A DNA stretch of 64,000 bases, from the NCBI GenBank assembly GCA_035627515.1, contig DASPLQ010000012.1:567558-631557 (forward strand), written 5' to 3'. Of this stretch, positions 1,265 through 48,085 are shown one piece after another. Positions within the stretch are counted from its first letter, which is position 1, and every line of letters begins with the position of its first letter. This DNA is from Vitreimonas sp. (lineage in GTDB: Bacteria; Patescibacteriota; Microgenomatia; UBA1400; PJMF01). The notes under the pieces were generated by a model that was given only the letters and a program-made list of their open reading frames with translations, was not told the origin of the DNA and did not search any database. The position numbers and the translations under genes are program-made.

Positions 1265-1891
1265 ATGGTATCTAAAATAGAAAGAGACCTGAATGACGAT
1301 GAAGAAAGACGTCGTCAAGAACAGCTCGAGCAATTTAGGAAAGCTCAACAGTTAAGAGCGCAACAAGATGAAGCCAGCCGTTTAAAACAACTAGCAACTG
1401 ATCAAGAGCGTATAAGGCAAGCACAAGCAAATCCTTTATATGCAGAATTTTTAGCCGTGCCTGATGACATAGAATTAATGAATTGTTTGACAACAGTTAG
1501 AAACAGGAATCCAGAAATTTATTACTTTATTAAAGAGCCGCGGCCGATACAGGCCACCGCAGCTGAGCCATTAGGCAGAGTAGTTGTCAAAATTAACTAT
1601 AAAGATGGCACCCAGCGAGATTTCATCACCATTCGTTATGAAGAAGGTCTTATTCAGGTTGGATCTACATCACAAAAAAAGAGCAGTTTGCGTTTTTCAG
1701 TCACAGGTCCATATTCGCGGATGGAAGAATATGATGAAGTCACTGATGCGGGTAAGAGTGACGTTTATACAATGAGGGTATTTAGTGTAACCACTTTAGA
1801 TTTTGATTCATCATCACGGCTGATGGCTTTTATTCTCAGTGATCCATGGATTGCCAAAAAATTTGACGTAGTGCCACCTCAGAGATGGTAG
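1265..1891 (+). CDS. hypothetical protein with charged coiled-coil N-terminus
   Basis: ATG 1265 lies 5 nt after a perfect AAAGGAGG RBS; the track ORF begins at an upstream GTG 1226, but the RBS supports 1265; N-terminal E/R/Q-rich heptads. Confidence 0.5.
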   Translation: MVSKIERDLNDDEERRRQEQLEQFRKAQQLRAQQDEASRLKQLATDQERIRQAQANPLYAEFLAVPDDIELMNCLTTVRNRNPEIYYFIKEPRPIQATAAEPLGRVVVKINYKDGTQRDFITIRYEEGLIQVGSTSQKKSSLRFSVTGPYSRMEEYDEVTDAGKSDVYTMRVFSVTTLDFDSSSRLMAFILSDPWIAKKFDVVPPQRW

Positions 1892-1902
1892 AATGAAGAG
1901 CT

Positions 1903-2574
1903 GTGAAAAAAGCTTTTCAACAATTGGTTTTACACTTTAACCATGCACGATCGATAGTAAGTAAGTCATCTTGGCAAACAAAGCTTTTACTATCTGCCAT
2001 CATTATTTTAGCCCTCATTAACTATCAGTTAGCTAAGCTCACTCAGCGCTTGATGATAGCTGTGTATCCCAGTTGGTCATACCATCTGACCATTTCTGTG
2101 CCATGGTTTTTGATTTGTTTTCTTCCCGCGGCAGCTCAGTATCGTTACTCAGGTCTGGAAATAAATCGCCAGCAGTTTCTAAAAAAGTGGCCAGAAATCA
2201 TTGGTTCATTTTTGTTAATTATGATCGGCTTGGTTGTATTTGTATTATTAGGGGTGACGGCCTTCTTTCATAACGTCAAATCGCCGCTCATTTTCTTTTT
2301 GGTGACGCCGATAGTGGAAGAGTTGTTGTTTCGAGGGTGGATATATGGCCAATTAGAAAAGTATAAGCTGTATCCAATAATGGGTTCAGCGATGTTATTT
2401 GGTTTACATCACCTTCAATATTTTGGATACCGACCCACCCCGTTTGCATTATTTCAAATTACGTACACTTTGTTATTGGGTTTATTTTTTGGAGTGATGC
2501 GCAAGAAAAGTGGCAGTATCTATCCATCCCTAGTAACACACATCATTATTAATTGGGTGACAGTGTATTTTTAA
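1903..2574 (+). CDS. CPBP-family intramembrane metalloprotease (CAAX protease/Abi-like)
   Basis: Multi-TM protein with EELLFRG and a downstream LFGLHHL motif typical of the CPBP/Abi family. Confidence 0.6.
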   Translation: MKKAFQQLVLHFNHARSIVSKSSWQTKLLLSAIIILALINYQLAKLTQRLMIAVYPSWSYHLTISVPWFLICFLPAAAQYRYSGLEINRQQFLKKWPEIIGSFLLIMIGLVVFVLLGVTAFFHNVKSPLIFFLVTPIVEELLFRGWIYGQLEKYKLYPIMGSAMLFGLHHLQYFGYRPTPFALFQITYTLLLGLFFGVMRKKSGSIYPSLVTHIIINWVTVYF

Positions 2575-2589
2575 AGTTAAGCTAGAGAA

Positions 2590-2598
2590 TGATATAAT
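2590..2598 (+). promoter_or_regulatory. extended -10 element TGaTATAAT
   Basis: TGnTATAAT match about 36 nt upstream of ATG 2634. Confidence 0.35.
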
Positions 2599-2633
2599 TT
2601 ATACTTATTTATTGCGTATAAGTTAATTTTTCT

Positions 2634-3506
2634 ATGGCTGCTGAACACCTTAAAATCCAGTTTGGGGACTCTCGAGATCAGCTTTTATTTAAGAAGGTCC
2701 AAACTACTCCCGCTACTCAGCGCGTCATTTTAGCTGGCGGATGCCCTTCGTATACAGAAGTGGCGAAAAGTTATCCCAACCAAAGTACAAAATCGGGTTT
2801 AAAAATTGCCAGTTTTACTCCAGGAGGAGAAAAAACAGGTCCCTATGCTCGCAAACTGCGTCGATTGGCAGCTCATTTTAATGATGGAACGCCTTTAACC
2901 ATCGACGCTTATATTTCTGACTGGGTACCACTACTCAGTATTTTTGCAGCTGAAAACCAACTCTTTTTAACTGAGTGGTTAGCGGATCGCTATCATCTCC
3001 GCCCTTCCCAATTACAGCATTTAATAAAGGGTATTCTAAATAATAATGTGCAATCTTCAGCAGATGAGATCAATCACGCCACTCAAGAAAGTGTGGAGGC
3101 CATACAAGACCAACTCCAGGATAAATTTCCGATGCAGACACTGTCACATAGCCGCGAGCTTGTTCGGGCTTTTAACCCCTCTTTGACAGAAGCACAGCTT
3201 GATAGTATCAGAAATGATCTAAAAGTACTGATCAAAGCTGTTTTTATTGGTTTAGAAAGATTTAATAAAGACTGGATCATGAGGCCGAACGCTTCAGAAG
3301 GCATTTGGAAACATATTTACCGGACTGATTTTGAGTTACTGCCTGCAGCGCGGTATGGAAAGAATCCAGGCCAACAAGTGGTTTTTTTGAGTTTGCCCAA
3401 GTTAGATAAGAACCCCCACCGTCCTCAACTTACTGCTGGAGCGGAGGAGCGATTGGATCCCCAGACACCAGTCATATTAGATATCCAAGCCTCAATTAGT
3501 TTATAA
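2634..3506 (+). CDS. hypothetical protein
   Basis: 290-aa ORF with no recognisable motif; stop overlaps the next start (TAATG). Confidence 0.45.
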   Translation: MAAEHLKIQFGDSRDQLLFKKVQTTPATQRVILAGGCPSYTEVAKSYPNQSTKSGLKIASFTPGGEKTGPYARKLRRLAAHFNDGTPLTIDAYISDWVPLLSIFAAENQLFLTEWLADRYHLRPSQLQHLIKGILNNNVQSSADEINHATQESVEAIQDQLQDKFPMQTLSHSRELVRAFNPSLTEAQLDSIRNDLKVLIKAVFIGLERFNKDWIMRPNASEGIWKHIYRTDFELLPAARYGKNPGQQVVFLSLPKLDKNPHRPQLTAGAEERLDPQTPVILDIQASISL

Positions 3507-5251
3507 TGCAACCACACCCTATGATGTGGTCAAACTTTCCTTTATCCGGCATCATTTTCGTGATTGCCATCTTCTTTGTTTTACCCTTTCTGGTGACTGT
3601 CGTTCTTCCAGCCTGGTTAGTACCTATGATCATGCGCTGGGTGCTGAATAGACAGCCTCGTTATGATTTACCGTCTCTAAAACCGTTCATGTTAAGCTTG
3701 ATGGGCTTAGCCATTGCGGCTAACTTTTTCTGGGATTACGTCATTTTTAATAACATTTATTATGAATGGGATCGCATTTTTTTGCCGTATACCTTTCTAT
3801 GGCATGAAACACCATCTTTAGGTATGGGGCCAAATTGGCTAGCTGACGGGTGGGAATTAAAACATTTATTTGCTGCGTGGTTACTCATAACTGTGGCCAT
3901 TTATGTGACATCAGCCCTGATTGCGGCGTACCGGGCCCGACATCACCATCATCGGGTGCGGTATCACAAAATTTTAATTGGGTCGGTATTATTGCTGAGC
4001 TTAGCTAGTTTGACCTTGCCACCCGTAGTGATGCGAGGGATTGCTTTATTATGGAATGGCCCAGCTAATCTGAATTATGAGGAAGTCAACGTCTCCTGCC
4101 GGCCATCCGAAGCGCCTCAACCACGTGTATTATTTACCAATGGCCAAGAAGAGTGGGTGACAGAACTTGATGGGTCTCATCAACGTCCCGCTTTTGATAA
4201 ACATTTGCAACTGCGTAGCATCTCGGATTATTTGTCGCCTGATGACTCAATGGCAGCCATTTTATGGGGACAGGACCTGTGGATTTATTGTCTCAACACT
4301 GAGGGAGCACTCAAGATTTCACTGCCCGTCTTTGATAAATTATATGGTCCAGGGGCACCACGAAGCTTCCCATCGTGGTCACCGGATGGTACAGAAATGG
4401 CGATGAATAACAAGGGCGATTTACTACTCATTAATCTGGCCAGTAAAACTACCCAGGTGCTAAAAGCTCAAATCGCGTGGCGAGATAACCACGTCGATTT
4501 GCGTTCTAAAAATCGCGATAAGATGTTAGCGCCATATGAATATGGTGATGCCTATTGGAGCCGAGATAATTTTATTTACTACACTCGTTTTGAAGGTGAT
4601 ACCGTGAAGCTTAACAAGCTTAATCCCACCACTAATGAAGAGCAAACCGTATATGAGGCAGCGCACCCCATTTATATCAATGGTGGTAGTCCCACTGGGG
4701 AGTGGTTAGCTCTGTCTGAGTATGATTGGTCCGCACAGCGTTCAACTACCTCACCGCTGAATAAAAAAGTACTGCTGAATACGAAAACGCTGGCTTTATT
4801 AACTGAGTTTCCCACTGGTCCCCAACCAGATTTTGGGGTGCCGCTAGGGGAGATCATTTGGTCACCATCGGGTAAGTACATGGCTCAAAACCACGGGAAT
4901 ATGCTGCAAACCAGTGGCTTTGAAGGTCCCTCAGTGCCGGTAGTGAGTTTTGAGGAAGAACATTATTACTCTGTGACTTACAAAGTGGATACTGCCCTCG
5001 GTAAAAAAGGTATTGTTTTAGATGGAGAGACCTTAGCGGTGGAGCTGAAAGATTTTGTAGATGACACGCATGTGTTAGTTAAAATTATTATTACTGAAGG
5101 TTCATTGATGAACCGAGCTGGCCAACCTCGCCAAATCAATGCTATCTTGGATATTAAGGCGGAAGAAATGCAGATTTTGCATGATTACCCTTATCGCAGT
5201 TTTGATGAACCATCAGTTGCGCGTTTAGAGCCACTAGCAGTAATTAGGTAG
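3506..5251 (+). CDS. membrane-anchored beta-propeller protein (PD40/TolB-like repeats)
   Basis: About five N-terminal TM helices and a His-rich loop; C-terminal repeats such as SWSPDGTEMA and IIWSPSGKYMA typical of PD40/WD40-like propellers. Confidence 0.5.
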   Translation: MQPHPMMWSNFPLSGIIFVIAIFFVLPFLVTVVLPAWLVPMIMRWVLNRQPRYDLPSLKPFMLSLMGLAIAANFFWDYVIFNNIYYEWDRIFLPYTFLWHETPSLGMGPNWLADGWELKHLFAAWLLITVAIYVTSALIAAYRARHHHHRVRYHKILIGSVLLLSLASLTLPPVVMRGIALLWNGPANLNYEEVNVSCRPSEAPQPRVLFTNGQEEWVTELDGSHQRPAFDKHLQLRSISDYLSPDDSMAAILWGQDLWIYCLNTEGALKISLPVFDKLYGPGAPRSFPSWSPDGTEMAMNNKGDLLLINLASKTTQVLKAQIAWRDNHVDLRSKNRDKMLAPYEYGDAYWSRDNFIYYTRFEGDTVKLNKLNPTTNEEQTVYEAAHPIYINGGSPTGEWLALSEYDWSAQRSTTSPLNKKVLLNTKTLALLTEFPTGPQPDFGVPLGEIIWSPSGKYMAQNHGNMLQTSGFEGPSVPVVSFEEEHYYSVTYKVDTALGKKGIVLDGETLAVELKDFVDDTHVLVKIIITEGSLMNRAGQPRQINAILDIKAEEMQILHDYPYRSFDEPSVARLEPLAVIR

Positions 5252-6932: not shown

Positions 6933-7796
6933 ATGCATATTTTACGCGACGCCTTACTCAGCTTTACCCAAAGCCTTCGCGATGCTGGCAAAGCCAATGC
7001 TACTGTCATTGCTTATAGTAAGGATATCGAGCAGCTCATCGATTACTTGTCTACCCAAGGTAAAACTGAGGCGGCTCAAGTCACTTCTGATGACATTGAT
7101 CAGTTCAAAGAAACTCTCAAAAAACAACGCTATACCAGCAAATCTATCTCACGCAAAATTAACTCTATCAAAGGTTTTTTCCGTTATTTGATTACTAACT
7201 CGGTGTTGGAGGAAAATCCAGCTGAGGTCATTGTCCACCCTAAATTTGATAACTCACCACCTCGTATTTTGTCTAAGTTAGAGTACCGCGCTTTGCGCGA
7301 TGCTTGCCGTGGTGACTCACGGATGTCAGCGATTGTAGAGTTATTGCTCCAGACCGGGATGCGGATTAGTGAGTTAGCGGCTTTGCAATCCACCGATGTC
7401 GATTTTGAGCGCAATATTATGTACATCAAAGCGCAAAACTCTCGTCCGGCTCGCAAAGTACCGATGAATACCGCTGCTAAAAATGCCCTCATGGACTACT
7501 TACAAATTCGGCCTCGTGCTCGCGAAAAAACGTTGTTTTTAACTAAGACCTGTCGGCCCTTTTTAGTTCGGAACATTCGGACTGCTATTGATCGTTACTT
7601 CCGCTTGGCAGGTATCAAAGACGCTAAAGTCAATGACTTGCGCCATACGTTTATTGTGGAACAACTTAAAGCAGGCACACCGCTGGTGTATATTTCTCAA
7701 TTAGTTGGTCACAAACGTATCACGACTACCGAAAAATATCTTAAATTGATCGAAGCTCCTGACATGAATCCTCAAGTTCAAATTGAGGAACTGTAA
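6933..7796 (+). CDS. tyrosine site-specific recombinase (XerC/XerD family)
   Basis: N-terminal SAM-like core-binding domain; catalytic R...HxxR...Y pattern (LRHTF ... GHKRITTTEKYL). Confidence 0.7.
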   Translation: MHILRDALLSFTQSLRDAGKANATVIAYSKDIEQLIDYLSTQGKTEAAQVTSDDIDQFKETLKKQRYTSKSISRKINSIKGFFRYLITNSVLEENPAEVIVHPKFDNSPPRILSKLEYRALRDACRGDSRMSAIVELLLQTGMRISELAALQSTDVDFERNIMYIKAQNSRPARKVPMNTAAKNALMDYLQIRPRAREKTLFLTKTCRPFLVRNIRTAIDRYFRLAGIKDAKVNDLRHTFIVEQLKAGTPLVYISQLVGHKRITTTEKYLKLIEAPDMNPQVQIEEL

Positions 7797-7846: not shown

Positions 7847-9469
7847 ATGAGTATTAACCCTCCTGAACGTCCTACTTGGCAATCACGTCAGGAAATTTTT
7901 TCGACTGAGTCTCTTGAAAGAGCAGCGGAGATAGTGGTGGCAGAAATTGCTGAGCGCATTGCCTGGCCTGATAGCTCCCGAGCGCTCCTGGAAATGATGC
8001 GTTCTGTGGCTTTGACAGAATACTTTCGAAACTTAAGCCCACTGGCAGTTCGACCAACTTATTTTTACACCCTCTTTTTCAATTTTTGGCATCAGCATCA
8101 AGATCATGAAACTGCGCTGTTAGAGATGATCAAGGCATGTAGTGATGCTCAAAATTTTTCTCATCTCGACGATATTATTGATAATCGTGATCAGCATTTG
8201 CCACATCAGATCCAAACGCCTCCTGAAGTTGAATTTGAAAAATCCTTATTAAATCATATTATGCCTTTCTTTCCAGAATATAAGGCGTATCAAGAAGATG
8301 AAAGTTTGCCACAGCTGAAACCACGACGAGTGTATAGCTATCTTTGGCAACTGGATTCTCATGATTTAGGTCAAAAGACAGGTAATTATATTAATACTTT
8401 TGCGATGCGCGATACCTGGCTGACTACAATTGCTCGTTATATAGCTGAACACCCCGATCATGATATTCCCGAAAACTATGCTGAACAGGACGATACCTAT
8501 CTCCAGAAGTTATATTATGAATTGGTGACACATCTGGGATCTTACGCCGCTCAGCAGCTGCGCGAAGCTAATGCCCGTAAATACAGTCAAGCCAATTTAT
8601 TTCCTTCGGCAATTTTAATGAGTACTTTTCAAGAAAATGGACTTTATCTTGATCCTGGCAAGACCAAACAATTGGCTCGCCAAGCCGTTGAAGATGGTGT
8701 TATTGCAGATACCTCAGAATGGATACATGAAGAAAATCATAGCGAATGGTATTACGATGTTAAGGCAATGTTGGCCTATGCCAAAGACCGAAAGCAGTTA
8801 AAAAATAAAGCTAATTTAGAGCTCATTAAACTTGGTGAAGCATATAAAGACTATGTGTTACTGGAAGAAATTCGCGCTCAATTTGAAGTAGTTGGTACTG
8901 AAATTGATAAATATATTATTCCGACTTCTGAGGAAGACCCTAGTAAAAAAAGTAATAAAGGTGTGATTAGATCGGTGCTCATTAAGGTCAAAGTAACTAA
9001 TGGCACGCAAGACCGCATCTTTAGAGCCGTCCATAGTGGTGACGTTTACCAGGTATATCTTCATTTAAAAAACATAAATGAATTTAGAGCTAGATTAAGT
9101 GTGAGCAAAACTTTTATAGAAATAAAATCCTTAAACGCTATTTTGCGTAATAACCCTGAGGCCTTTGTTAATACTACTGGCCAGGCATTAAAGGTGTCGA
9201 CAGTTCAGAGTGCTGTTAATCGTGAAAGGCAGCATGGTTACCATGTCAAATCGAAACGAATTGACGCATTGGAGCTTAATGGTAGCAGTGTTAGCGGCTG
9301 CACTTTTGTTGATTTAAACAGTTTATTTACCCGGTATCCACAACCACAGGAAACTGCTGAGGAAAGTATAAAGCAGCTATGGAATTTGTTGGATGTACTG
9401 AGAGCTAAACAGGCAGCAACAGAAAATAGCGCTATCTCAAGTGCTCAAGATGAAGCTGATTTAGATTAA
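7847..9469 (+). CDS. hypothetical protein (540 aa, cytoplasmic)
   Basis: Long ORF with no TM segment and no recognisable motif. Confidence 0.45.
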   Translation: MSINPPERPTWQSRQEIFSTESLERAAEIVVAEIAERIAWPDSSRALLEMMRSVALTEYFRNLSPLAVRPTYFYTLFFNFWHQHQDHETALLEMIKACSDAQNFSHLDDIIDNRDQHLPHQIQTPPEVEFEKSLLNHIMPFFPEYKAYQEDESLPQLKPRRVYSYLWQLDSHDLGQKTGNYINTFAMRDTWLTTIARYIAEHPDHDIPENYAEQDDTYLQKLYYELVTHLGSYAAQQLREANARKYSQANLFPSAILMSTFQENGLYLDPGKTKQLARQAVEDGVIADTSEWIHEENHSEWYYDVKAMLAYAKDRKQLKNKANLELIKLGEAYKDYVLLEEIRAQFEVVGTEIDKYIIPTSEEDPSKKSNKGVIRSVLIKVKVTNGTQDRIFRAVHSGDVYQVYLHLKNINEFRARLSVSKTFIEIKSLNAILRNNPEAFVNTTGQALKVSTVQSAVNRERQHGYHVKSKRIDALELNGSSVSGCTFVDLNSLFTRYPQPQETAEESIKQLWNLLDVLRAKQAATENSAISSAQDEADLD

Positions 9470-9507
9470 CAATTGTCTTTCTTAACTCTTTTTTATAGAA
9501 TATCCAT

Positions 9508-9558
9508 ATGTTAACCACACTTTTGACCTCCAGTGCTTGGTGGCTCTCCCAGAATTAA
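9508..9558 (+). promoter_or_regulatory. trpS leader peptide ORF (MLTTLLTSSAWWLSQN) with tandem Trp codons
   Basis: ATG 9508 ... TGG TGG 9538-9543 ... TAA 9556-9558; immediately followed by the antiterminator/terminator elements. Confidence 0.45.
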
Positions 9559-9604
9559 CCCCGGGAGAAAAGGTGGTGCAGTAAAAAATAAATGATAGAC
9601 AGAC

Positions 9605-9628
9605 AACTCCCGGCCGGGAGTTTTTTTG
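9605..9628 (+). terminator. intrinsic terminator/attenuator hairpin AACTCCC-GGCC-GGGAGTT followed by a T7 run
   Basis: Perfect 7-bp GC-rich stem, 4-nt loop and T-run, 43 nt upstream of the trpS ATG; the upstream copy CCCCGGGAG (9559-9567) can form a competing antiterminator. Confidence 0.6.
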
Positions 9629-9670
9629 TGTCTGTTTATCGTAGTAACTAGCGTTAGAATAAAGGAAATT

Positions 9671-10690
9671 ATGAATCAAAACCAAAAACGAATTTTATCC
9701 GGTATCACCCCCAGCGGTAGTGCGCTGCACATTGGGAATTATTTTGGGGCTGTGAAACCACAGATTGAGCTGCAAGATACGGCTGAAACCTATTACTTTG
9801 TGGCTGATTTGCATGCCTTAACTACTGTCCAGGAACAGGGCGTTTTAGAGAAAAATATTGAAGGAGTGGTGTTAGATTATTTAGCACTGGGGTTGGATCC
9901 GGAAAAATGTGTTTTTTTCCGTCAGTCTGATGTTCCCGCCCACAGCCAGTTGGCAGTAGTGTTAGGTAACTATATTACGTATGGTCAGATGCAACGCATG
10001 CATGCATTCAAGGATAAACTTCAAAAAGGTGCCAACGAAGAAAGTATTAACATGGGCCTCTTTAATTATCCGATTTTGATGGCTGCCGATATTTTGTTGT
10101 ACCGACCGTATGGTGTGCCTGTAGGTGAAGACCAACGCCAGCACATCGAATTAACCCGCGACATCGCCGACAACATTAATCGTGCGTATGGTCGTGAAGT
10201 TTTTCCGTTGCCCGAACCTTTGATTTCTAAAGAAGTGGGCAAAATTATTGGTACTGATGGTGAGCGTAAGATGAGCAAGTCACTGAGTAATATTATTGGT
10301 ATCTTTGATGACGAGGCCACGATCAAAAAACAAATCATGAGTTCATATACTGATCCTAATCGTAAAAAAGCCACCGACCCTGGCAAAGTGGAAGGTAATC
10401 CCATCTTCGTATATCACGATTTGTTGAATGATAATGTGGAAGAAGTCCAAGATCTCAAAGCTCGGTATCGGGCGGGGCAAGTCGGCGACGTAGAAGTCAA
10501 AGAAAAATTACTGGCTGCACATTTACGAATGTTTGGTGCGGCTCGGCAGCGTCGTGCGGAGCTAGCTGCCCAGCCAGAAAAGGTGAAACAAATCTTAGCC
10601 GATGGTGCTCGTCGCGCGCAGGAGTTTGCTAATCAAACCATGCGTGATGTGTACGAGTTAATAGGGATTAAAAATAAATTGAATTCGTAA
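9671..10690 (+). CDS. trpS: tryptophan--tRNA ligase
   Basis: Class I aaRS: HIGH-like region (SGSALHIGNYFGA) and KMSKS motif (KMSKSLSN); AAAGGAAATT RBS before ATG 9671. Confidence 0.9.
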   Translation: MNQNQKRILSGITPSGSALHIGNYFGAVKPQIELQDTAETYYFVADLHALTTVQEQGVLEKNIEGVVLDYLALGLDPEKCVFFRQSDVPAHSQLAVVLGNYITYGQMQRMHAFKDKLQKGANEESINMGLFNYPILMAADILLYRPYGVPVGEDQRQHIELTRDIADNINRAYGREVFPLPEPLISKEVGKIIGTDGERKMSKSLSNIIGIFDDEATIKKQIMSSYTDPNRKKATDPGKVEGNPIFVYHDLLNDNVEEVQDLKARYRAGQVGDVEVKEKLLAAHLRMFGAARQRRAELAAQPEKVKQILADGARRAQEFANQTMRDVYELIGIKNKLNS

Positions 10691-21343: not shown

Positions 21344-21375
21344 GAAAAAAGCGGAGGTCGTATGGCTTCCGCTTT
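21344..21375 (+). terminator. intrinsic terminator downstream of dnaK
   Basis: GCGGAGG...CTTCCGC stem followed by a T-run. Confidence 0.5.
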
Positions 21376-21376
21376 T

Positions 21377-21826
21377 TGGTTTTGCGGGTTTTTTATTTCT
21401 CTGTAAGGTGTTTCTAGGTTAGGCGGCGGGTAGTTTTTTTGCATGGGGGCTGGGTGAGGTATGTGTCTAAACACCCATAAAAGTCCGTGGCATATTTGTG
21501 CCACGATCGTGCACTAATTATGTCACTGTAGAAATGAGGTTCTGATGAGGAGTGTGTCAGCGAGAGGGTCATTTGTTGAGCTCATAGTTTTTGGCTTGTA
21601 TGAATAGTGGCAAAAATCATACAATTGACACAGAACTTCCTTTTAAGAAAGAGACCTTAGCGGGCACCCCCCTTCACAAACCTCTTTTTTATTCATTGTG
21701 CGTTTATTAACAAAAACCGCACAACCTTCACAAAGTTCACTTTTTGAGCAACCACTATCAAACAAAAAAAGATCAGCTCCTTTTTTCACACCCCTTGAGA
21801 AACCTTCTTAAAGGCCGTTCAACATG
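21377..21826. repeat. intergenic repeat family, copy 2 (most complete, about 450 bp, modular)
   Basis: Contains module A (TTTCTCTGTAAGGTGTTTCTAGG ... GGTGAGGTATGT...AAAAGTCCGTGGCATA...TATGTCAC) and module B (TTGTATGAATAGTGGCAAAAATCATACAA hairpin ... TTATTAACAAAAA ... CTTAAAGGCC); aligned by eye to the copies at 16136, 29058 and 47784. Confidence 0.75.
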
Positions 21827-31919: not shown

Positions 31920-32151
31920 ACTGAGTTAGCTTTAATAAGATTTTAAAGAAAGGCTCTTCTGCTATTTAGCAGAGGGGCCTTTTTGATTGAGTTTTGAGGC
32001 CAGTTAGGCGTGTAATACAATATAATATATTACAGACAAATATGAGTACTAACCCCGACTTCTTTGCCTACTATCGCTAACGAGCTCGTAAGAGCCGGCT
32101 TTTTTTAGTTAAGGAAAAGTTTCTAGAGAAGGTCCGCACCTTTGATATAAT

Positions 32152-33168
32152 TTGATCATGTTTAAAGAAGGAAAAGGTGGTTTACCATCTGAGATACTTG
32201 CTTTGCATGACTTAATCAAAAACTCGCAGCAATTTATCACTGATCGCGGAGTTAATTTTGAGTCATATGTCTCAGCTCTTCAAAGCGCAGGTTTTTTTGA
32301 GTTAAGACTTTTTGATACCCGCGATTTAAGCATTCGTCCTTACCAGACCTCACAGGATCAAGCTGCTTACAAAGAGCGGTCGCAATTATTTCGCTTAGCT
32401 ATAGAAGGGTTTTATCAGGCTGAGTTGGTGACAGCTTTTATGAAGGCTAAAATACAGCAGGGTAGGGAACCACAGGGTATTATCTGCAGTACCATCCCAC
32501 TTGATTTCAATTTCATGGCACCTAGTGAGGACTACTCATTAGACAACTGGGCTGGTGACCCTTTAGTGTATCGCCAGCGTGCACAACAGAATTATTCTAA
32601 GGGAAAGTTCTCCTTTGAGATGTATCTTGCCACTAGGTATGCGACAGTCTTTGATCCCGCCTTTTATGTAAGTTTTTACATGTTCGAGGGTTTTTTAGCT
32701 GATTATCGGGAGCAGCAGCTGAGGGCAATGACGAAGCAGGGTATTAGTCAGCATTTGTTGACTGATTACAAAGATTCCACAGCTTTCAAAGCTCTTTTAT
32801 CGGGTAATTATAACTATTTCATTGGGTTGATGCCTGGCGTTGTCCATGCTTACCGGAAGCGGATTTTATCTGTTTCCCAGCCTTCTGATCATGAAAAGTA
32901 TTTTCTCCCAGAAGATTTTAAAGAGGGTATAGAATATGCTTTTAAAGCGGGTGTATTCCAGCATTATTTGAAATTGGGTGGGCGGAGTATTTGTTCAGCC
33001 GATAGGTTGTTGACCGACGTTATGCCACAAATTCTACCTTCACTATACCTTTATTTGCGTAGTGGTCGCGTTTGTAAAAAGACTCACCGTCAAATAGAAA
33101 TTGTTCAGCATCAGGCTCGTGGTTATATTTATGCTTATCAAGCTTATTTAGATCACAAATTGAGATAA
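32152..33168 (+). CDS. hypothetical protein
   Basis: 338-aa ORF with no recognisable motif. Confidence 0.45.
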   Translation: MIMFKEGKGGLPSEILALHDLIKNSQQFITDRGVNFESYVSALQSAGFFELRLFDTRDLSIRPYQTSQDQAAYKERSQLFRLAIEGFYQAELVTAFMKAKIQQGREPQGIICSTIPLDFNFMAPSEDYSLDNWAGDPLVYRQRAQQNYSKGKFSFEMYLATRYATVFDPAFYVSFYMFEGFLADYREQQLRAMTKQGISQHLLTDYKDSTAFKALLSGNYNYFIGLMPGVVHAYRKRILSVSQPSDHEKYFLPEDFKEGIEYAFKAGVFQHYLKLGGRSICSADRLLTDVMPQILPSLYLYLRSGRVCKKTHRQIEIVQHQARGYIYAYQAYLDHKLR

Positions 33169-47729: not shown

Positions 47730-47754
47730 TTAGTAGCCCGATTTTGAACTTAAG

Positions 47755-47783
47755 CCCCTTCTCGCAAGAGAGGGGGTTTTTGG
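47755..47783 (+). terminator. intrinsic terminator CCCCTTCTC-GCAA-GAGAGGGGG followed by a T-run
   Basis: 9-bp stem (one G-U pair), tetraloop and T-run read directly from the sequence. Confidence 0.65.
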
Positions 47784-48085
47784 TTATGCAGGTTTTTTTT
47801 ATTTCTCTGTAAGGTGTTTCTAGGGTGTCTGGCGAGTATTTTTTTGCTTGGAGGTGGGATAGGTGAGGTATGTCTTTGAACACTCTTAAAAGTTCGTGGC
47901 ATAGTTGTGGCATGATCGTGCACTAGTTATGCCACAGTAAAAATGAGGTTCTGTTTAGGAGTGAGTAAGAAGGTCTTTTATTGAGCGCATGTTTTTTCGT
48001 TTGTATGAATATTGGCAAAAATCATACAAACTCCAGGAAGTTCACTTTTTGAGCAACCACTGTCATACAAAAAAGATCTCTGCCG
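47784..48085. repeat. intergenic repeat family, copy 3 (module A plus a shortened module B)
   Basis: GGTTATGCAGGTTTTTTTTATTTCTCTGTAAGGTGTTTCTAGG ... GGTGAGGTATGTCTTTGAACACTCTTAAAAGTTCGTGGCATA...TATGCCAC ... TTGTATGAATATTGGCAAAAATCATACAA. Confidence 0.75.

Follow-up and report, generated by a model that had tools for sequence, protein, structure and literature searches.

Ahead of trpS, which encodes tryptophanyl-tRNA synthetase, in contig DASPLQ010000012.1 (assembly GCA_035627515.1, Patescibacteriota), a short open reading frame (ORF) with two adjacent tryptophan codons is followed by an intrinsic terminator. This arrangement raises the question of whether trpS expression is governed by the progress of a ribosome along a leader peptide, as in the trp operon of Escherichia coli. 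An earlier note, made from the letters of the 64,000-nucleotide (nt) stretch analysed here (the window), had proposed leader-peptide attenuation of the trpL type, and this proposal is supported, mainly by comparison with relatives. We consider it very likely that the element is a functional tryptophan-responsive, ribosome-mediated transcription attenuator, with charged tRNA-Trp as its signal and read-through into trpS as the step under control.

Leader elements and their recurrence in relatives

The ORF, its TGG TGG pair, the sequence CCCCGGGAG directly after the stop codon (9559-9567) and the terminator hairpin are all present as the earlier note described them and can be read from the sequence (Table 1). 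The hairpin was correctly placed in that description, but its end was not: the run of seven T stops at 9627, and position 9628, given as the last of the terminator, is a G. A terminator scan reports the hairpin at 9605-9622 (seven pairs, four of them G-C, with a loop of 4), which together with its T-run is located 44 nt upstream of the trpS ATG. The identity of the regulated gene also holds, as the downstream ORF matches TIGR00233 far above the cut-off and appears to be an ordinary trpS gene. Three features had gone unmentioned: a segment 1 inside the ORF, a helix that joins the ORF's 5' half to the linker following segment 2, and a -10 box 6-9 nt ahead of a leader ATG that has no Shine-Dalgarno (SD) sequence. 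The pairing of segment 1 with segment 2 completes the classical 1-2-3-4 layout. In the minimum-free-energy (MFE) fold of the window leader the ORF doubles back onto the post-stop region and the terminator stands as a separate helix, while the competing antiterminator (9561-9567 with 9607-9613) comprises 7 bp, six of them G-C, and reaches -14.5 kcal/mol as a duplex.

Table 1. Features of the trpS leader region. Positions are those of the 64,000-nt window, and all leader features lie on the + strand.
Feature	Position	Strand	Details
Promoter-like site P1	9473-9501	+	-35 TTGTCT 9473-9478, 17-nt spacer, -10 TAGAAT 9496-9501; 9 of 12 matches
Leader ORF	9508-9558	+	ATG 9508, TAA 9556-9558; 16 codons plus stop; translation MLTTLLTSSAWWLSQN; read from sequence
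5' half of ORF (ACCACACTTTTG)	9514-9525	+	Pairs with linker 9568-9577; outer part of long leader hairpin in untranslated RNA; from MFE folds
Regulatory Trp codons TGG TGG	9538-9543	+	Codons 11-12; first W 6 codons ahead of stop codon
Segment 1 (TCTCCC), anti-antiterminator strand	9545-9550	+	Inside ORF, directly 3' of the Trp codons; pairs with GGGAGA 9563-9568 (MFE and duplex folds)
Segment 2 (CCGGGAGA)	9561-9568	+	3-10 nt past stop; partner is segment 1 (via 9563-9568) or segment 3 (via 9561-9567)
A-rich linker, segments 2 to 3	9568-9604	+	37 nt; 5' end 9568-9577 is AAAAGGTGGT, pairs with 5' half of ORF
Segment 3	9605-9615	+	Terminator 5' arm AACTCCC 9605-9611 and loop GGCC 9612-9615; antiterminator uses CTCCCGG 9607-9613
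Segment 4	9616-9627	+	Terminator 3' arm GGGAGTT 9616-9622 and T7 run 9621-9627
Candidate second promoter P2	9655-9660	+	-10-like TAGAAT, 10 nt ahead of trpS ATG
Shine-Dalgarno-like AAGGA for trpS	9662-9666	+	5 nt ahead of trpS ATG
trpS, tryptophan--tRNA ligase	9671-10690	+	339 amino acids; TIGR00233, E 2.9e-95, 319 bits (cut-off 176.75)

By itself the window yields a moderate signal. When the leader is shuffled with its dinucleotides kept, 73 of 2000 shuffles (3.7%) match the duplex energy of the antiterminator, which is modest support, and two adjacent tryptophan codons (WW) are present in 5 of the 592 short ATG-initiated ORFs of the window. On these figures an ordinary intergenic terminator, a chance ORF and a chance complementarity might have fallen together. 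Such a coincidence is nevertheless hardly credible, because 12 distinct sequences show the same arrangement, in which reading frame and W position are conserved and the helices co-vary. It is this recurrence in relatives that places the signal above chance. The position of the terminator also argues against coincidence, as it lies 136 nt past the upstream stop codon, unlike the other intergenic terminators in the window, which lie 19-58 nt past their gene.

The earlier note had suggested looking for a conserved short ORF with tryptophan codons upstream of trpS in relatives, and this search yielded 11 further distinct leaders. Leaders were sought in the regions upstream of trpS and then across whole loci, by a scan anchored on terminators that looked for short ORFs containing W, since leaders with a single W and leaders separated from trpS by insertions had escaped a WW-ORF scan that reached only 330 nt upstream of trpS. 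A relaxed scan that admitted GTG and TTG starts and weaker terminators added no further leaders. The resulting set of 12 consists of the window, L003, L002, L021, L005, L006, L014a, L014b, L037, L017, L036 and L004. The TrpS relatives, drawn from species-representative genomes and metagenomes, are nearly all labelled Patescibacteria group, Dojkabacteria, Saccharibacteria or Paceibacterota, and among leader-bearing loci TrpS is 60%-77% identical to the window protein, so that the loci are not assembly duplicates.

The leader peptides of the relatives are MTRTTARSSWWASLK (L003 = L020), MTRHTTQSSWWTSLS (L002 = L019), MKRYTALSSWRSSLRN (L021 = L026), MLINNSKTIFAWWNLFN (L005), MILTNNSNTNFAWWSLFA (L006), MNTKINPTITWWNCFK (L037), MKFYTLSFTSAWWTRL (L017), MKIKTQNTSNWSTSLK (L036 = L038, where TrpS is only 60% identical), MLLQTQLSSYWHNPE (L004) and, in L014, MFNQNLTLACWLNSK for the first leader and MKVNNYLNWWSSKYLW for the second. 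Their ORFs span 15-18 codons, and tryptophan is the sole residue invariant across all 12 peptides, occurring as WW in eight and as a single W in four. The first W lies 5-8 codons from the stop in every leader, while the residues that follow the tryptophan block vary (LSQN, ASLK, NLFN, SLFA, TRL and others), a freedom that places the constraint on the RNA of segment 1 and not on the peptide. All 12 leaders lie upstream of trpS and end in a terminator with a T-run, whose 5' arm begins 23-52 nt from the stop codon.

The sequences of segments 2, 3 and 4 differ from locus to locus (for segments 2 and 3: CCGGGAG/CTCCCGG, GGGGTTT/AAACCCC, AAGGGAGA/TCTCCCTT, AGGGAGTTT/AAACTCCC, GCGGGTTGTC/GACTCCCGC and others), yet the 2:3 complementarity is kept in all 12 leaders. 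MAFFT alignments of the leaders set segments 2 and 3 out of register between sequence classes, and RNAalifold on the relatives' alignment recovered only the terminator helix, with two of its five pairs changed on both sides. We therefore used a register-free test, in which the best duplex energy of each segment pair within its own locus is compared with that of all cross-locus pairs and significance is taken from permutations over the 12 loci. Cognate antiterminator pairs (2:3) average -13.0 kcal/mol against -9.8 kcal/mol for non-cognate pairs, and terminator pairs (3:4) -14.3 against -9.7 kcal/mol, neither difference being reached in any of 100,000 permutations. The pairing of the ORF's 5' half with the linker gives -8.6 against -6.1 kcal/mol (45 of 100,000 permutations), and the 1:2 pairing -8.3 against -6.9 kcal/mol (1,711 of 100,000). 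The test is conservative rather than liberal, because swapping close relatives yields near-cognate energies. The mutually exclusive antiterminator that the earlier note had drawn from the post-stop copy of the terminator 3' arm is thus supported by covariation, in the form of cognate versus non-cognate duplex energies.

Ribosome position and the predicted switch

The same proposal held that a ribosome stalled on the tryptophan codons leaves segment 2 free and that a ribosome at the stop codon occludes it. We modelled both positions on transcripts that end with the terminator loop, in which all bases were masked as far as 11 nt past the first base of the A-site codon, a footprint assumed from established ribosome dimensions. 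The computed structure switches in all 12 leaders. With the block's last W in the A site, a region 2-19 nt past the start of the stop codon sequesters 5-11 nt of the 5' arm of the terminator in every leader, with energies from -10.4 to -19.4 kcal/mol. When the A site is on the stop codon, this pairing of the arm is lost in every leader and the residual fold is -3.6 kcal/mol or weaker, with the exception of L036, whose -8.8 kcal/mol is due to an unrelated linker hairpin.

From these elements we infer a sequence of events that runs from the transcription start through ribosome stalling and kinetic competition to a physiological response. Transcription would start from P1 at the leader ATG, or no more than about 2 nt from it. 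If no ribosome engages the transcript, segment 1 would pair with segment 2 and the 5' half of the ORF with the start of the linker, leaving segment 3 free to enter the terminator. Free translation to the stop codon would have a similar outcome, as the ribosome would then cover 9561-9567 and the terminator would form. If charged tRNA-Trp is scarce, the ribosome would stall with TGG TGG in its decoding sites, covering segment 1 and exposing segment 2. The exposed segment would pair with CTCCCGG of segment 3 before segment 4 is made, so that no terminator forms and transcription reads through into trpS.

A conserved tryptophan a fixed few codons ahead of the stop is also a mark of arrest peptides, and a nascent peptide of the TnaC kind could in principle sense free tryptophan, arrest near the end of the ORF when tryptophan is plentiful and so induce trpS. 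TnaC, however, needs specific residues beyond its tryptophan and acts on Rho-dependent termination. The 12 peptides here share no invariant residue besides W, their terminator is intrinsic with a T-run, and the alternative pairing co-varies at the level of the RNA. A ribosome held at the stop would moreover cover segment 2 and favour termination, and induction of trpS or trpB at high tryptophan makes little physiological sense. We regard this explanation as very unlikely.

Could the switch be thrown by a factor other than the ribosome, either uncharged tRNA-Trp acting on a degenerate T-box or an RNA-binding protein resembling TRAP? The linker motif GGTGGTG (9572-9578) vaguely recalls the T-box core GGUGGUACC, and L004 carries GGTGGTACCG further downstream. 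As a T-box remnant the linker motif was rejected, because its GGTGGT pairs with ACCAC in the ORF. A canonical T-box needs a Stem I with its specifier loop as well as the conserved antiterminator sequence, more than fits into the roughly 100 nt that this leader has ahead of its terminator. The statement in the earlier note that no T-box consensus is present agrees with the Rfam scans: at E<=10 the region 9300-9800 gave two chance hits only, with neither T-box (RF00230) nor Trp_leader (RF00513) among them; at the gathering threshold the whole window gave no family match to the leader region and neither of these two families anywhere; and 37 related loci, scanned at the same threshold, gave no T-box or Trp_leader. 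Beyond the two chance hits, the scans returned tRNAs only. Nor is an array of (G/U)AG repeats visible in 9500-9630. Control by such a factor is highly improbable, and the translating ribosome remains the preferred agent.

Candidate promoters and gene order around the leader

P1 is the only sigma-70-like site found within 9200-10000. Its -10 box ends 6 nt ahead of the leader ATG, and the site would be expected to work as a promoter. Of the 11 promoter-proximal leaders, 10 have a -10-like hexamer whose end lies 6-9 nt from the ATG, several of them with an extended TGn, at a background frequency of such hexamers of 0.0246 per position. An SD-like motif upstream of the ATG is absent from all 11. 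A -10 box so near the start codon, together with the missing SD sequence, suggests that the leader ORF is probably translated from an mRNA that is leaderless or carries a leader of 1-3 nt. The trpS gene of the window is itself preceded by AAGGA, consistent with translation from a longer read-through transcript.

A second set of boxes lies closer to trpS. P2 has no convincing -35 and is absent from the promoter-scan output, but among the eight relatives that have trpS immediately after the attenuator, seven carry similar boxes (TATAAT, TACAAT, TACGAT) at 10-21 nt from the gene, and these are conserved within subgroups. By count they are not significant, because about 63% of 45-nt stretches are expected to hold such a hexamer by chance. 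A reasonable refinement of the attenuator model would have a proximal promoter provide basal trpS expression, to which the attenuator-controlled upstream promoter adds. Six relatives without a leader (L009, L015, L016, L032, L034 and L039) have a (TG)GTACAAT box 5-9 nt before the trpS ATG and no SD sequence, which suggests that trpS itself is leaderless in these six.

The gene order is informative as well. A gene for a XerC/XerD-like recombinase lies upstream in all leader-bearing loci (6933-7796 in the window), and the leader is present in 15 of the 24 loci with this recombinase-trpS synteny, the window counted. No locus without the synteny has a leader, several of these holding too little upstream sequence to judge. 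Between recombinase gene and leader the window contains a 540-amino-acid ORF (7847-9469) with no Pfam or NCBIfam match, which looks like an insertion because the leader directly follows the recombinase gene in L005, L006, L017, L037 and L021. Other inserts at this position are a HicA-containing pair in L003 and a 90-amino-acid ORF in L036; despite all three, the leader remains beside trpS. Inserts between leader and trpS are a 99-amino-acid ORF (L002), about 970 nt (L004) and a second leader with trpB (L014). The last of these loci (L014:1432-1682 and 1727-4023) contains tandem W-leaders, MFNQNLTLACWLNSK and then MKVNNYLNWWSSKYLW, each with its own terminator. The second, a WW(W) leader with an SD-like AAGG instead of a -10 box, precedes trpB (TIGR00263, 575 bits), and trpS follows 47 nt after trpB. 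A W-leader before the tryptophan synthase beta gene independently supports a tryptophan-related signal. In the tree of TrpS, loci with a leader are dispersed within a single clade, apart from L036 on a distant branch, a distribution that suggests an old element with repeated loss.

The proximal boxes and the synteny could also be read in another way, with the leader and its terminator as a stand-alone short transcript (a small peptide gene, a small RNA or the 3' end of the upstream unit) and trpS expressed only from P2. Boxes of the P2 type occur both in the window and in most relatives with an adjacent attenuator, TACAAT lies 5-9 nt before the trpS ATG in many leader-free relatives, the motif AAAAAATAGTA(C/A)GATAC is common to L017, which has a leader, and to L024 and L025, which have a terminator but no W leader, and the leader is confined to loci with the recombinase gene upstream. 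Such a unit would, however, give no reason for W as the sole invariant residue, for the co-variation of the post-stop sequence with the terminator 5' arm or for a switch that follows ribosome position in all 12 leaders. It also fits poorly with insertions that separate the leader from the recombinase gene and keep it beside trpS, and with a W-leader ahead of trpB. P2 has the weaknesses given above and, even if active, would supplement the attenuator, not replace it. We consider a stand-alone unit unlikely and attenuation of trpS the better account.

Besides the modest statistical support from the window alone, several observations weigh against attenuation. The competition between the post-stop pairing and the hairpin, which the earlier note had singled out for folding, appears in RNA truncated before segment 4, where the antiterminator forms, and not in the full-length leader, where the terminator stays the minimum-energy structure even with segment 1 masked. 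The outcome would then have to be settled kinetically, ahead of the synthesis of segment 4, as it is in E. coli. A long loop of about 39 nt must also be closed by the antiterminator. In unmasked truncated RNA the terminator arm is free, as the model asks, in the window, L003, L005, L037 and L004 (5/12) and largely free in L014a, with 4 of 9 arm nt paired (making 6/12); for L002, L021, L006, L014b, L017 and L036 the antiterminator and not the 1:2 hairpin is already predicted, and in L017 the 1:2 pairing is nearly absent (-0.2 kcal/mol). The anti-antiterminator is, on these folds, the least secure part of the model. Four of the 12 leaders have a single W to stall on. As many as 9 of the 24 loci with the shared synteny lack the leader, which is hence dispensable, and L024 and L025 have kept the terminator and a P2-type box with no W leader. 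The trpS gene may also have its own promoter, in which case the attenuator would only modulate expression. Finally, the support comes from sequence comparison and computed folds.

Some relatives that lack the leader deserve separate mention. Three stretches (L025:1335-1400, L024:450-520 and L023:1400-1500) resemble decayed leaders: L025 keeps TAGAAT, a 7-nt gap and ATG, with an ORF that now runs into the terminator and has no W codon; L024 retains the terminator alone; and L023 lacks both the W-containing ORF and the terminator. L022, which is without the leader, has a gene of the TrpR family (L022:1230-1500; Pfam Trp_repressor, PF01371, E 2e-20) that stops 17 nt upstream of the trpS ATG; this gene may offer an alternative route to tryptophan-responsive trpS expression.

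Further structure was noticed around the terminators. A larger imperfect inverted repeat (GATAGACAGACA ... TGTGTCTGTTTATC, 9591-9641) surrounds the terminator and T-run in the MFE fold of the window; inspection by eye did not reveal it in the relatives, and it would be possible only in read-through transcripts. L003 (2874-3000) and L002 (2443-2560) have in common a conserved stretch 3' of the terminator (..AACTCCCT..GTTCTTTAACAGAGAAGGA...TCCTTCC..) that holds a second CTCCC motif and a GAAGGA/TCCTTC hairpin.

Elsewhere in the window, a second possible leader at 32042-32080, encoding MSTNPDFFAYYR, was dropped since it folds no better than shuffles (z = 0.26). This ORF (32042-32110 region) has FF and YY codons, follows TACAAT/TATAAT-like boxes, precedes a weak hairpin with a T7 run and lies about 50 nt upstream of a 338-amino-acid ORF (32152-33168); a role as an attenuator is improbable. 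The window also has a non-coding repeat of about 255 nt in two copies with roughly 85% identity (21376-21640 and 47778-48035), each beginning right after an intrinsic terminator (21348-21375, after dnaK, and 47754-47777), and the repeat has no Rfam match in the scan of the window.

Relation to known attenuators and significance

The closest model is the trp leader of E. coli, whose TrpL peptide has WW followed by three codons before the stop. The window leader shares its short ORF with tandem tryptophan codons near the stop, here followed by four codons, and, by its predicted folds, the four segments with the 1:2 pairing, the 2:3 antiterminator and the 3:4 terminator with U-run. In both, ribosome position would decide the outcome and the antiterminator would be favoured kinetically, not thermodynamically. 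The differences are equally clear, as the element described here lies before an aminoacyl-tRNA synthetase gene and not a biosynthetic operon, belongs to a Patescibacteria host and has neither sequence nor covariance-model similarity to Trp_leader (RF00513). The leader ORF here, like those of the promoter-proximal relatives, lacks an SD sequence and as a rule starts 6-9 nt past a -10 box. Across the 12 leaders a linker of 23-52 nt sets segments 2 and 3 apart, and the ORF's 5' half makes an additional helix with it.

The logic of trpL applied to an aminoacyl-tRNA synthetase gene has already been described and is not new with the window leader. Vecchione and Sello (2010) reportedly, to go by their title, dealt with ribosome-mediated attenuation of an auxiliary, antibiotic-resistant trpRS gene, a paralogue of a different kind from the apparently ordinary copy in the window. 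The Streptomyces systems (S. avermitilis trpS2, S. coelicolor trpRS1 and S. lividans trpL2) resemble the element here in placing a leader-peptide attenuator with tryptophan codons ahead of a tryptophanyl-tRNA synthetase gene, but they belong to an unrelated phylum and have no sequence similarity to the window leader. Attenuators have been predicted upstream of trpS in Streptomyces, the S. avermitilis case being trpS2, with pheST named as a parallel case of leader-peptide attenuation of a synthetase operon (PMC1262725). In S. lividans, trpL2 lies upstream of trpS and is leaderless with a single W (MMTRTCTQLWRAA), trpL1 is leaderless too, and a U-rich tract is not reported after trpL2 (PMC8079986), unlike the 12 leaders here, all of which end in a T-run. 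By analogy, the leaderless reading of the window leader would parallel S. lividans trpL1 and trpL2. The pheST operon of E. coli, with its pheM leader, is likewise a synthetase operon controlled through codons for the cognate amino acid, though it concerns another amino acid in another phylum and is not homologous. The T-box of Firmicutes trpS answers to the same signal, poor charging of tRNA-Trp, and likewise sets a terminator against an antiterminator to allow antitermination into trpS; it binds the tRNA directly, whereas the element here would use a translating ribosome. As the host belongs to the Patescibacteria (Candidate Phyla Radiation, CPR) and not to the Firmicutes, this comparison is an analogy and not an expectation.

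The mechanism is thus classical, and what is new is the lineage, in which such regulation has not yet been described. In the literature searched, no paper links transcription attenuation to the Candidate Phyla Radiation or T-box riboswitches to Patescibacteria, and a search on leader-peptide attenuators in Patescibacteria returned nothing mentioning Patescibacteria. As far as these searches show, the leaders probably constitute the first CPR family of ribosome-mediated attenuators to be described, characterized by an SD-less and probably leaderless ORF, a long hairpin spanning that ORF and, in one genome, tandem copies that would govern trpB. For the study of attenuation this would be an expected extension of a textbook mechanism and bring no new principle, while for annotation it adds a family, small so far at 12 distinct members, which escapes the RNA-family libraries now in use.

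If the reading is correct, the leader offers a concrete and testable example of amino-acid sensing in Patescibacteria, acting on trpS and, in one relative, on trpB-trpS. A functional attenuator would mean that trpS has two modes of expression, one with SD-led translation of read-through transcripts and one with near-leaderless translation from a proximal promoter, and that organisms with reduced genomes monitor the charging of tRNA-Trp and rely on tight coupling of transcription and translation.

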